Sequence record: MN850630.1
Source: Escherichia phage naam
Strand: one strand, 5' to 3'
DNA length: 64,000 bases
Shown piece after piece: positions 34,798 to 39,616 of this stretch. Under the pieces are notes generated by a model, which saw only the letters and a list, made by a program, of their open reading frames with translations, was not told where the DNA came from and did not search any database. The translations under genes and the position numbers were made by a program. Position 1 is the first letter of the stretch, and each line of letters opens with the position of its first letter.

Positions 34798-35217
34798 ATG
34801 AACATTAAATCTAATAATCCGGCATATAGCTTTGATAACGCTTTTTGTCACGGTCCGGCGGCGAAAGGATTCGAAATCGATGGTAAACTAATTATTGTCA
34901 ATGTTGACGGGGAAGAGGTTGCAGTATATCCGGTGGCAGACGTAAAAAGCCGTTTACAATGCCGCATGGATGTTACCGCCTATCAGCTTGATCCGGTCCG
35001 CATAGTTGCCCTGGTCCTGGAAGAAGAAATTAAAGCCATGCACCATAGCAACAGATTTATTGGTGACGCGCAGGATAATATGAAAGTATGCCGCCATAAA
35101 GTTAATGAAGTGCTTAAAGAGTACGGCTATAAAGATCTTATGATCAAACGTGAGGAAAAATTCCGCTACCGTAACGACCTGGCAAATCGGATTTTTGAAA
35201 TATACGAATCATTATAA
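34798..35217 (+). CDS. hypothetical protein
   Basis: AAGAGG RBS; 139 aa; last gene of the plus-strand block. Confidence 0.6.
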   Translation: MNIKSNNPAYSFDNAFCHGPAAKGFEIDGKLIIVNVDGEEVAVYPVADVKSRLQCRMDVTAYQLDPVRIVALVLEEEIKAMHHSNRFIGDAQDNMKVCRHKVNEVLKEYGYKDLMIKREEKFRYRNDLANRIFEIYESL

Positions 35218-35235: not shown

Positions 35236-35260
35236 AAGGGGCTTAGGCCCCTTTCTTTTT
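35236..35260 (+). terminator. rho-independent terminator ending the plus-strand block
   Basis: Stem aaggggc / gcccctt then TCTTTTTG. Confidence 0.65.
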
Positions 35261-35878
35261 GTCTGCTCTTCCCCCTACCATAAACGGCCCTACCTGGCAA
35301 GTGGAATAATTGACGAGCCATCAATCCTACACACTGTACAAACATACATGTAAAATAGCTATTGCATAACCTTTCATTGTGTGGTAGCGGTGCTATTTTT
35401 TACCAGTTTTCCTTCCAAAATTGCACGTAATGCCGCTATTGCACAAATTTTAACCTGATGCACATCTCCAATATCTTGTCAACAACTAAAAATCTTTATA
35501 AGTCATACACTTACACAGCATCGAAAGCGTGTTCTACGCGAAAAATCGAGTATAACTATAGCCGCCAGATCTCAGAATTCACGTACGCACGCCATTCTAT
35601 AGCCTGCAAAGTATTTATTCCAACCACAGAATAACGGAATAGTCAATACCTGCATAAAATAATTATTAGTGTAAACTGCATAACATAAATCAGCTCAGGT
35701 GTCAACATTTTTCGTAAACAGTCCGAAATTATCACGATGAGTTATCATAAACAGAGAAATCTTTAGTCGTCTAATGTTTACTGTACATTACTATACTGAC
35801 TGGAATCATTAGATGACTAAGAGAAAGATAAGAAATAATTAATAATGTAATTGTTTTACCTGTAACAATAAGGCAACT

Positions 35879-35898
35879 ATGCAAACGAATGGCATGGC
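35879..35898 (+). repeat. 20-bp direct repeat ATGCAAACGAATGGCATGGC, copy 1
   Basis: Exact second copy at 36140..36159. Confidence 0.7.
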
Positions 35899-36015
35899 GC
35901 GACGGAGTCGCGACATAATATAAAAGCAGTAACCATCACCCCCGTGATAGTTTGTCTGCAATCTATTAATCAGATCATAGTTGCCTTGTATTCAGTTAAT
36001 CATGACATGATAAGC

Positions 36016-36047
36016 AAGGCAACTATAGATCTTCTAATAGTTGCCCT
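36016..36047. repeat. palindromic site GGCAACTAT-N10-ATAGTTGCC
   Basis: Further copies of the arm at about 35870 (AAGGCAACTAT) and 35977 (ATAGTTGCCTT); operator-like or iteron-like. Confidence 0.55.
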
Positions 36048-36170
36048 GCTTTTATATTATGTCATAGAAACACCCGAAGGGGTGACCAAAGGTCACCTGG
36101 CATAGCCAGTGAAAGATTATTAACTTGCTAATAGTTATCATGCAAACGAATGGCATGGCTGATTATCGGT

Positions 36171-36257
36171 GTGTAAACAGTCAATCATGTAAATGGTTAG
36201 CATGTGAACAATCAGAAATGTAAACAATCCAGTGTGTAAACTAATAGGTGTGTAAAA
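36171..36257 (+). repeat. cluster of (G)TGTAAAC(A) repeats
   Basis: GTGTAAACAG, ATGTAAACAA, TGTGTAAAC and GTGTAAAAG within 90 bp; further GTAAACAG at about 35714, 36511 and 37221, and on the minus strand at about 36368. Confidence 0.55.
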
Positions 36258-36851
36258 GTGTCATGTTGTGTCAGTTAGGTCACATTATGTCAGACAAGTT
36301 TTTCTCCTCTTTGTCAAGTGCTGCATGAAAAATTTACAAGCTTGTATGGTAGCATTTTTGCGGCCCTGTTTACATTCAGTGTTGTATGTATAATCCTTGT
36401 TGTGTGGGCGTTTAGACGTCTGGACGGTCAGAAGTCTGCAGGTTAATATCTAATCTATCGGCTGCTAACTATATCCCACACAAATAGTAAGAAATATAAT
36501 TGTTATGTGCGTAAACAGTAACCCATGTTATCAATCCCTGTATGTATCGCCAGTGGTGCGCATAATGGGTATTATGTTAAATTGCCCGTAATGATAACAG
36601 TTCTCACAATGATAGGTATTCTCATTCACCCCCACAAGATAGGTTGCAAATGTTGTGCCACTGTGTGAACGGCCTGGCCTATTAATTTGCCTCACTGCCT
36701 TGATATTTGAGAATTATTATAAGAATGAGAAGTATTCCCATTTCGTCCGCCTGGCAGCACTCCTGTAGGTCAGGTCAAAATCGTGGTAGAACTAGACCTA
36801 TCCGGATATTTCTGGCTGACTCTTCAGGTCTGTGTGGGAAAAGCCAACCTC

Positions 36852-36866
36852 TCCGGCGGGGCAGGG
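36852..36866 (+). repeat. 15-bp GC-rich direct repeat TCC(C)GGCGGGGCAGGG, copy 1
   Basis: Second copy at 36999..37015; CTCTTCAGG recurs at about 36820, 36904 and 37351. Confidence 0.5.
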
Positions 36867-37710
36867 GGAGGTCAATTAAAAAATTTACGTGGTGTATGAA
36901 GCGCTCTTCAGGTAAGGCAGGTATTATGGGATGAAACCCGCTTCAGGCAATGATATTTGTGGGTGTGATATTTGCTGGAAGGCCAGATATGACGGGACTC
37001 CCGGCGGGGCAGGGGTAGTACAGACAGGGAAAATATGGGGATGTAGTTGGGGAAATTGATCAGACAGGTAGAGTATGGAATATGTTACAGGTATGTTAAA
37101 TATGGAGGTTGAATATCTGTAGGATTTGTGTGTAAAATCAAAGACTTAAGGGGTGTTGTGGTATTTTCTATAAATAATTCAAGTTTAATAGGCAATATTT
37201 GTCTCTATCCGCTTTGTGTGGTAAACAGATTCAGATGAGATTGGTTTACAAGTGTATACATAATATACAAATTAAAGATACAAGAAACCCCCCTCCCCCT
37301 TCGGCTACCATTCACCTTTTCCTCTGACTGGTACTTAAACACTTATTCAGACTCTTCAGGTTATCACCCATATATCATATGGCAGTGACTGGTGTCCTCC
37401 GGCCCCTCTTTCGTCACCCGTCCGCTTCGCCATGCTAATGCCATAGCTAATGGTTCGGTTGTTCACCCTGTTCACTCAGGTGTATCTCTATACCCCTTCA
37501 AACCGAAGAGAACAGAAAACCCGAATTACTCGGTAAAAGAAAAGAGAAGAACTTAATTTTATCAGGATAGGCAAGAATGTCAAGGCATGACTGCTCACTA
37601 AACAAGCAAACAGTCATGTGTGGGAGGTAAGTGATTGTGGTGGTAGGAAATTTAGTTGAAAGATGTGTTATAGGTGCTTCCAGCACTTTAGCCGGGCAGC
37701 TAATTGTGTG

Positions 37711-37926
37711 TCAGTCCAGCGGTTCATCCTCTACTTCACTGAAATCAATGTTCATGGTCTCTTCCCAACCATCGATCTCAGCACAAGAGTGGAGTTCTTT
37801 AGGGTTTACTCCCAAAGCCTCAGCAACAGAGTCTATATTTAACACCTCTGGCAGGTATGATTCATCGAATTCAAGGTAAATCAGGCCACGAGTGTTGTCA
37901 GCTCCACCAAATATCTCTATCTTCAT
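37711..37926 (-). CDS. small acidic protein (MK[IV][EK] paralog family)
   Basis: MKIEIFGG N-terminus, acidic C-terminus; most downstream gene of the minus-strand block. Confidence 0.55.
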   Translation of the reverse strand: MKIEIFGGADNTRGLIYLEFDESYLPEVLNIDSVAEALGVNPKELHSCAEIDGWEETMNIDFSEVEDEPLD

Positions 37927-38047
37927 AAAATCTCCTCTGGGAATGAGAGTGTGAACAGGGTTTTATACGTTCCAATACGCTGGAATTATGCACGTTTGCC
38001 TCTTCAGGCCATGCTTTAGCATGAGGAACCTGTGTGGGCTCGGTGCT

Positions 38048-39310: not shown

Positions 39311-39616
39311 TTATTCTACAGAGCGTTTGAACAGAATGTCTGCCTCAGACATGTGCTCAACCTCTTCTTCGATTTTAGCGCGACGTTTTTCAGCCTCATA
39401 GCGGATATCGAACTCGGTAGCCACCAGAGATTTGATGAATTTAGGAGAATACAGGTGATCCTGCTTCTCAACGAGAATGATATCCTTAATGGCATCTTTC
39501 AGATCTTTAATCTGAAGTTGGAGTTCCACCAGTTCTTCGATTGTTTTGCGAAGGCGATCACGCTCTGCAGTGTCAGAAGGAAGAGAGGTGAACAGTTCAA
39601 CTTTAGATTTAGCCAT
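39311..39616 (-). CDS. hypothetical coiled-coil protein
   Basis: AAGGAGAC RBS; 101 aa. Confidence 0.55.
   Translation of the reverse strand: MAKSKVELFTSLPSDTAERDRLRKTIEELVELQLQIKDLKDAIKDIILVEKQDHLYSPKFIKSLVATEFDIRYEAEKRRAKIEEEVEHMSEADILFKRSVE

Follow-up and report, generated by a model that had tools for sequence, protein, structure and literature searches.

Results

The palindrome array and its setting

The stretch analysed here, 64,000 nucleotides of Escherichia phage naam (sequence record MN850630.1; termed the window below, to which positions refer unless stated otherwise), comes from a Vequintavirus, an rV5-like E. coli myovirus, and is matched by 119 phage records at 85–98% identity. 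The plus strand genes stop at 35217 and the minus strand genes near 37711, and the gene-free zone between these convergent gene arms harbors the array of palindromic motifs that is the subject of this study. In the rV5 paper the zone is drawn as a 'non-coding' box, and the bidirectional terminator expected there was not found (PMC3606486). A canonical strong terminator follows the last plus strand gene (35236–35253); the convergence zone contains short unsupported open reading frames (ORFs) only, and a search for transfer RNAs found none. Coding by a 53-aa ORF (35944–36105) was considered and rejected, because this ORF has no ribosome-binding site, its differences relative to the related phages are all non-synonymous, and indels shift its end.

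The array is built from the 9-mer GGCAACTAT, which alternates with its complement at four sites, termed A to D (Table 1), as had been seen in an earlier note on this DNA that was made from the letters alone. Four of the six matches of the 9-mer in the 64 kb fall into the array (0.49 expected; none of 100 shuffled sequences reached six), and the conserved unit of the motif is the 11-mer ARGGCAACTAT. Sites C and D indeed form the perfect palindrome with a 10-nt spacer (N10) that the note had singled out. A degenerate fifth site (GCAATCTAT), which together with site B makes up another N10 palindrome, 60 bp ahead of the perfect one, had been missed, as had been the 18-nt inverted repeat, the heptamer array and the terminal repeat described below. 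A degenerate copy of the motif (ATAGTTATC) is also present at 36130 within a variable spacer. The two exact copies of the 20-mer ATGCAAACGAATGGCATGGC (direct repeats DR1 and DR2) proved to be as described, with no further match in the window even when three mismatches are allowed (0.01 expected), and so did the CGCGAC-gga-GTCGCG hairpin at 35898–35912, which is formed by the GC-rich leader. The two overlapping stems that the note had placed nearby exist as well (36071–36084, CACCC-GAAG-GGGTG; 36081–36097, GGTGACC-AAA-GGTCACC), but are not part of the conserved element, since they lie in the indel-variable spacer and are missing in about half of the relatives.

Two further sequences were noticed in the vicinity of the array: a fifth exact 11-mer (AGGGCAACTAT, 35002–35012, minus strand) inside the last plus strand gene, a gene that several relatives lack, and a distinct imperfect inverted repeat of 22 nt (82% complementary; 35763–35820) just upstream of the array.

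A long-range inverted repeat and its predicted fold

The core of the array is enclosed by a perfect 18-nt inverted repeat, whose left and right arms (IR-L and IR-R) read GACATAATATAAAAGCAG and CTGCTTTTATATTATGTC, respectively. In a secondary-structure prediction, which the earlier note had proposed for this region, both strands of the 206-nt core folded far more stably than shuffled versions (z about −8), with energies of −77.5 kcal/mol for the plus strand RNA, −78.9 kcal/mol for the minus strand RNA and −45.5 kcal/mol for DNA (z = −7.8). In the predicted branched fold, IR-L and IR-R form the outer stem, and a long inner hairpin pairs palindromic unit 1 (the degenerate palindrome) with unit 2 (the perfect one). 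The hairpin formed by sites C and D (−17 to −20 kcal/mol, 10-nt loop) is followed by UUUUAUAUUAU; our scan for the intrinsic-terminator consensus considered loops of 3–8 nt only and hence does not list this hairpin. The scan yielded minus strand candidates at 35952–35931 and at 36084–36071; the former coincides with the small hairpin next to IR-L, which on the minus strand is terminator-like and followed by the T-rich complement of IR-L. An assignment of the functional strand from fold energies was discarded: the minus strand is slightly better in four of five lineages, but so are its shuffles. A search of Rfam at a permissive threshold gave only sub-threshold chance matches and no family match. 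As for transcription starts in the neighborhood, for which the note had suggested a look, a scan revealed no sigma-70 promoter upstream of the block on either strand; a near-consensus minus strand promoter at 37583–37556 points its way.

Conservation within Vequintavirus

Comparison with related genomes located the block in 118 of the 119 Vequintavirus records, each time as a single copy at one locus per genome, and a sensitive blastn search retrieved it only from this set. Among the 22 relatives that were compared in detail, positions 35860–36065, which comprise site A, DR1, the leader, IR-L, the small hairpin, both palindromes and IR-R, are nearly invariant, and positions 36066–36292 are hypervariable, with DR2 being retained at the head of the heptamer array. 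The letters of the spacer between sites C and D vary, while its length is constant at 10 nt (9 nt in V18 and magaca). In V5, phita32 and A147 (L040, L037 and L038), a 33-nt insertion (TAAACTCAGGCATAGCCTTCGTCTCGAGGATGT), able to form small hairpins of its own, is found between window positions 36008 and 36009; it thus falls between sites B and C into the would-be apical loop, a position that we count as support for the fold.

The same plan in diverged rV5-like lineages

The plan of the block recurs, with different sequence, in at least seven diverged lineages of rV5-like phages. A5-4 and UPEC06 were reached via a flanking gene, and L063, L099, L100, L101 and L116, which are IMG/VR or metagenome contigs, via two motif scans; an exact palindrome scan of viral contigs produced mostly chance matches. 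Around the block, the DNA of these lineages can no longer be aligned, and the plan is common to all: a lineage-specific exact direct repeat of 14–20 nt is followed by the conserved leader GG(T)GGCGCGACCGTAGGGAGCGAC (GGCGCGACGGAGTCGCGAC in the window), then by a perfect long-range inverted repeat of 16–22 nt with lineage-specific sequence, a C-rich TAACCCC stretch and inner palindromes, and finally by the second direct-repeat copy and, 570–880 nt beyond the leader and always in the same orientation and on the same side, a site resembling the E. coli dif site. There are variations on this theme. The second direct-repeat copy lies inside the loop in L101 and L116, and in A5-4, L063, L099 and L100 the arm behind the last inner hairpin either is not T-rich or, where it is, does not follow the hairpin directly. 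In L100, the forward–reverse–forward–reverse order of motifs recurs with a different 13-mer (CAAATAGCAAGAA), and the direct repeat of this lineage contains TAGCAAG.

When the outer stems of seven lineages were aligned on their outer ends, all 112 cells (16 pairs) were Watson–Crick pairs with not a single G-U, a proportion that is partly built in, as the arms had been picked as inverted repeats; 14 of the 16 pairs were changed on both sides. The telling point of this sequence comparison is that the arms differ in each lineage, yet their perfect complementarity is kept.

A 20-nt form of the leader (GCGCGACCGTAGGGAGCGAC) was also encountered outside the group, namely in unrelated GC-rich metagenome contigs (L103/L108, L104, L105, L107/L113–L115), where it is intergenic and has no partner arm. 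These contigs amount to four independent sequences, a number that may be near chance expectation for a collection of this size.

The terminal repeat next to the array

The exact 459-bp end duplication of EdH4 maps to positions 36293–36751 of the window, in agreement with the repeat_region 1–459 annotated for Gotham, and the genus has been reported to have terminal repeats of 458–459 bp with fixed ends (PMC6563267, PMC7471380). In UPEC06, the ends of the record overlap by 462 bp and the last base is homologous to window position 36751; in L099, an exact 519-bp repeat occupies both contig ends and the block lies 261 nt outside it. The array including DR2 is thus located 133–420 bp outside one boundary of the direct terminal repeat (DTR), with the core block (to 36063) ending 230 nt away, and no counterpart of the block was found on the other side of the DTR. 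The interval between DR2 and the boundary is filled by two sets of short repeats (Table 1). The YGTRAAC heptamers form a cluster that is unique in the window, and their copy number (about 3 to 12) and sequence vary strongly among close relatives. A5-4 has a GTTGG array of similar period, positioned inside its terminal repeat.

Some further observations concern the DTR itself and its far side. It starts with a conserved CT-rich sequence (GACAAGTTTTTCTCC, 36293–36310), also present in L100, and at its other boundary GCC is followed directly beyond the junction by TGGCAGCA, an arrangement kept in A5-4 and UPEC06. Beyond that boundary, within 36820–38010, there are four copies of CTCTTCAGG (36820, 36904, 37352 and 38000) and two copies of CGGCGGGGCAGGGG (36854 and 37002), the latter containing the FtsK-orienting motif GGGCAGGG.

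A dif-like site inside the terminal repeat

The dif-like XerCD core within the DTR (GGTGCGCATAA-TGGGTA-TTATGTTAAAT) is identical to E. coli dif (GGTGCGCATAATGTATATTATGTTAAAT; PMC3025954 and others) at 22 of 22 arm positions, and only the 6-bp center differs. Queried with 71 nt around the core, 5403 of 5426 complete E. coli genomes gave a match, each at a single place. The site does not vary among the 22 relatives (V5 has a single change, in the center), and it represents the only part of the zone that is still alignable with A5-4. Dif-like cores are present in every related lineage examined, and inside the terminal repeat wherever the latter is known (UPEC06, L099). Being part of the DTR, the core would be carried by each virion DNA in two direct copies, through which host XerCD could in principle circularize the genome or resolve multimers.

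FtsK orienting polar sequences (KOPS) were neither enriched across the window nor polar toward the dif-like site, and a literature search brought up nothing that links Vequintavirinae with Xer or dif, nor any description of the palindrome element. An 87-aa neighbor is labeled 'DNA translocase FtsK', but has no Pfam match, and the label was not used as evidence for Xer/FtsK involvement. Dif-arm matches were further noticed within 0.3–1.4 kb of a contig end in two other large viral contigs, L054 (154,976 bp; 276–303) and L062 (261,806 bp; 1286–1421), in L062 as a direct pair plus an inverted partial copy, all inside 140 nt.

Table 1. Features of the gene-free zone around the palindrome array; positions are those of the window except in the last row.
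Feature	Position	Strand	Sequence	Remarks
Site A	35872..35880	+	GGCAACTAT (11-mer AAGGCAACTAT from 35870)	invariant in 22 relatives; overlaps DR1 by 2 nt
DR1	35879..35898	+	ATGCAAACGAATGGCATGGC	directly 5' of the GC leader
GC-rich leader	35896..35914	+	GGCGCGACGGAGTCGCGAC	conserved; forms the CGCGAC-gga-GTCGCG hairpin
IR-L, left arm	35912..35929	+	GACATAATATAAAAGCAG	from repeat search; covariation in seven lineages
Small hairpin	35931..35952		AACCATCAC-CCCC-GTGATAGTT	relatives differ in loop length and at one stem position
Palindromic unit 1	35958..35985		GCAATCTAT-N10-ATAGTTGCC	left half degenerate; right half is site B (35977–35985, −)
Palindromic unit 2	36018..36045		GGCAACTAT-N10-ATAGTTGCC	perfect; sites C (36018–36026, +) and D (36037–36045, −); arms reach 15 nt at 36012–36051
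IR-R, right arm	36046..36063	+	CTGCTTTTATATTATGTC	from repeat search; covariation
Indel-variable spacer	36066..36139			identity 0.58–0.8, gaps up to 27%; not conserved; contains the two stems at 36071–36097
DR2	36140..36159	+	ATGCAAACGAATGGCATGGC	exact second 20-mer copy; heads the heptamer array
Heptamer array	36172, 36187, 36203, 36219, 36235, 36251 (36172–36257)	+	YGTRAAC	15–16-bp period; after DR2
Short repeats	36266..36292	+	(A/T)T(G/A)TGTCA	adjoin the terminal-repeat boundary
Direct terminal repeat	36293..36751		459 bp	mapped by homology to EdH4 and Gotham
Dif-like XerCD core	36555..36582	+	GGTGCGCATAA-TGGGTA-TTATGTTAAAT	inside the DTR
Dif-like cores elsewhere	L047 6462–6489; L099 6637–6664; L082 289–316; L063 5246–5273

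Neighboring genes and other sequences of the zone

None of the eight flanking ORFs has a Pfam match, nor was any DNA-binding domain matched among them, and PHROGs lists them as 'unknown function' except for a 101-aa protein encoded 3 kb away (39311–39616, minus strand), which belongs to phrog_639 'transcriptional regulator'. Of the 224 phage records that match this protein, 114 do so at 99% identity or more, and the identity in other Vequintavirinae genera is 42–60%; the protein gave no Pfam and no PDB match, and presumably resembles T4 DsbA. A synteny path to more distant genera via its gene was abandoned, as the gene order differs in 4MG and CR3.

A non-coding segment at 37280–37400 is 99–100% identical across 19 relatives. 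Upstream of it on the minus strand are found a near-consensus sigma-70 promoter (TTGACA-16-TAAAAT with TG, 37583–37556) and a terminator-like hairpin (37533–37521); together, the segment and the stretch 37521–37583 could be the gene of a small RNA or an origin primed by transcription. Finally, 18 'Campylobacter phage' records (MG0656xx, UNVERIFIED) are 87–98% identical to this region of an E. coli Vequintavirus; they are probably mislabeled or derived from contaminating coliphages.

Discussion

By sequence comparison, the array is the form taken in Vequintavirus by a fold-back element that is non-coding and conserved in rV5-like phages. The notion of a cis-acting DNA site is well supported, as the block is non-coding, is present in 118 of 119 records and appears to have been rebuilt with different sequence in other lineages. 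Regarding the form in which this site would act, the lack of G-U among the 112 cells of the outer stem suits DNA better than RNA, and the covarying complementarity without wobble pairs, the lack of a promoter and the fixed side relative to the DTR lead us to favor a structure adopted by the DNA when single-stranded. Moreover, an inverted repeat that is perfect over 16–22 nt, covaries and uses Watson–Crick pairs only makes a fold-back structure more likely than a pair of protein sites. Our preferred, albeit tentative, reading is therefore a hairpin or cruciform at the DNA level that would serve as a cis element in the replication or processing of the genome ends. We infer the DNA rather than RNA nature of the folded form, its role in handling the ends and all enzymatic steps of the following scheme. 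Unwinding of the stretch, either by a fork crossing the concatemer junction or by strand displacement during duplication of the single junction repeat copy, would allow one strand to fold back on itself as a branched, roughly 150-nt hairpin, which may then act as a structural signal, either as a priming or pausing site or as the substrate of an end-processing enzyme.

For T7, a hairpin at the concatemer junction is proposed to assist in duplicating the repeat, of which the junction holds a single copy (summarized in PMC4281155), and this hairpin intermediate is the closest precedent of the proposed fold-back signal. The T7/T3 junction likewise belongs to a linear genome whose ends are fixed and carry a short direct terminal repeat, has non-coding repeat arrays adjoining the repeat and includes an inverted repeat near the junction that is able to form a hairpin. 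However, there is no sequence similarity between the two, the inverted repeat of the phage element is much larger (152 nt, branched), its arms covary between lineages, exact direct repeats flank it and its distance from the cut site is variable. In contrast to T7, the phage is also a 137-kb myovirus with no known phage RNA polymerase.

Several observations weigh against a fold-back element that handles genome ends. FV3 (L029, NC_019517), the sole record of the 119 without the palindromic block, shows at 1801–1991 a clean deletion from DR1 to DR2 that left one repeat copy of the DR2 type, which argues that the block is dispensable for growth. A cloning or assembly deletion is an alternative explanation for this single record from 2012; 'EPFV3' was considered as a check on the deletion, but turned out to be an unrelated Chinese isolate. 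The distance between the block and the repeat boundary ranges from 169 to 370 nt across phages, which speaks against a geometrically fixed coupling to the cut site. Reuse of motifs in forward–reverse–forward–reverse order in the window and in L100, together with the exact direct repeats, looks like an array of protein sites, and a hairpin leaves the direct repeats unexplained. There are also hints of an RNA: the mismatches in two inner stems are G-T on the minus strand, and two lineages have UACG loops on the plus strand, so that these hints conflict with respect to the strand. The enzyme for end processing, in addition, is only a putative one.

A possible, though somewhat doubtful, alternative, which takes up the idea of the earlier note in broad terms, is that the array is a duplex site array for a lineage-specific dimeric DNA-binding protein. 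Two tandem palindromic operators, single sites and direct repeats would assemble a nucleoprotein complex that could mark an origin of replication, the packaging site for the small terminase, or a site of regulation or partition. The same 9–11-mer occurs four times in alternating orientation with dyad symmetry, and the length of the spacer between sites C and D is kept whereas its letters vary. The motif is lineage-specific, with L100 repeating the alternating order on the basis of CAAATAGCAAGAA, and base pairing cannot explain the exact, lineage-specific direct repeats of 14–20 nt that flank or enter the block. In addition, a short-period repeat array and the cut site of the terminal repeat adjoin. 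In these respects the block recalls iteron and operator arrays (lambda ori iterons, lambda cosB, P1 pac hexamers), which likewise consist of several copies of a short, lineage-specific motif, some of them dyads, with periodic short repeats near a cleavage site. Independent protein sites are normally degenerate, however, whereas the arms here are perfect over 16–22 nt in all lineages. No cognate gene is adjacent, be it a partition or an initiator gene, the neighbors lack DNA-binding domain matches, and a 139-aa neighbor is absent from several phages with identical motifs. Inspection by eye revealed no AT-rich unwinding region and no DnaA box, the distance to the cut site varies widely instead of being fixed, and one natural isolate, FV3, lacks the block in its record. 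The suggestion of the earlier note that the architecture resembles a dimer-binding operator or a centromere-like partition/origin site thus holds as far as a DNA site is concerned; the dominance of the inverted repeat, the missing partition or initiator gene next to it, FV3 and the DTR-linked position speak against its more specific part.

We consider it unlikely that the element functions as RNA, either as a bidirectional intrinsic terminator or insulator that keeps convergent transcription out of the terminal repeat or of the gene arm opposite, or as a structured non-coding RNA. In favor of such a role, the hairpin of unit 2 is annotated as a plus strand terminator in the Murica and Alma records, folds at −17 to −20 kcal/mol and has UUUUAUAUUAU behind it; on the minus strand, the hairpin 35952–35931 is followed by the same U-rich 18-mer, and 36084–36071 is terminator-like as well. 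The element sits at the convergence of the gene arms, where the rV5 authors had expected a bidirectional terminator (PMC3606486), the near-consensus minus strand promoter is directed toward it, conserved flanks surround a covarying helix, and G-U pairs occur in the two inner stems on the minus strand only. As in bidirectional terminators, a hairpin between convergent gene arms is flanked on the left by an A-rich and on the right by a T-rich arm, and two annotation pipelines called the C:D hairpin a terminator. Yet the element is much larger and branched and is situated 650 nt past the strong canonical terminator that already follows the last plus strand gene. Its 10-nt loop is atypical of intrinsic terminators, neither an Rfam match nor a promoter upstream within the block on either strand was found, and the outer stem is free of G-U. 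A proper U-tract after the last inner hairpin is missing in A5-4, L063, L099 and L100, indicating that terminator function is not the conserved feature; furthermore, no matching element exists beyond the other side of the repeat, and the hints as to the strand conflict.

The dif-like site raises the question of whether the block might be connected with Xer recombination. We regard as improbable a host-XerCD module in which the dif mimics of the DTR would be recombined to circularize the injected DNA or to resolve replicating multimers, with the fold-back element providing a lineage-specific control of timing or direction; circularization of this kind would be the host-enzyme equivalent of P1 cyclization by Cre/lox. 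Very unlikely, in our opinion, is the narrower idea of an accessory module of the dif-like site that would confer directionality or timing in the manner of cer and psi, or act as a folded substrate. The accessory module draws on the position of the block on the XerC-arm side, in the same orientation and at 570–880 nt in seven of seven lineages, together with the invariance of the site in the 22 relatives and its match in 5403 of 5426 E. coli genomes, at a single place in each. Like ColE1 cer, pSC101 psi and other Xer-exploiting elements, the phages combine a dif-type core (11-6-11) on a mobile replicon with structured non-coding DNA on the XerC side. The accessory sequences of cer and psi abut the core within about 200 bp. 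In the phages, by contrast, the block is 490–640 nt from the core (in the window, IR-R ends 492 nt from it, with the terminal-repeat boundary and the hypervariable array in between), and the replicon is a virulent tailed phage with the core inside its terminal repeat. Only one of the two dif copies of virion DNA has the block beside it, FV3 retains dif without the block, and no ArgR or ArcA box was noticed.

Least probable of all appears to us a neutral or selfish palindrome whose arms would be kept perfect by intramolecular gene conversion and whose direct repeats would be remnants of insertion or duplication. FV3 survives without the block, direct repeats around an inverted-repeat element resemble an insertion footprint, and conservation within the genus is not exceptional, since the non-coding DNA around the block shows about the same degree of conservation. 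On the other hand, the block is single-copy and confined to this locus, and its architecture and leader persist across lineages whose flanks can no longer be aligned, which points to long-term selection. A miniature transposable element was rejected for similar reasons: there is one copy at one locus, with a 21-nt leader and a 77–267-nt spacer between the arms and the direct repeats. The direct repeats, of 14–20 nt or more, are variably placed, and the arms do not coincide with the ends of the segment bounded by these repeats, which is not what a transposon footprint looks like.

To return to the fold-back element, its significance lies in the combination of a conserved structured element with covarying arms and an adjoining DTR that carries the arms of the host dif site. 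If this dif site is functional, a virulent tailed phage would join the filamentous and integrative elements that exploit Xer recombination. Phages of the rV5-like group are common isolates and are used in therapy and biocontrol cocktails, and the 2.4-kb gene-free zone that includes their genome ends has so far been described only as 'non-coding' (PMC3606486). The features assigned to it here may offer handles on replication, circularization and end cutting in these phages, and may serve as a guide to what rebooted or trimmed genomes must keep.

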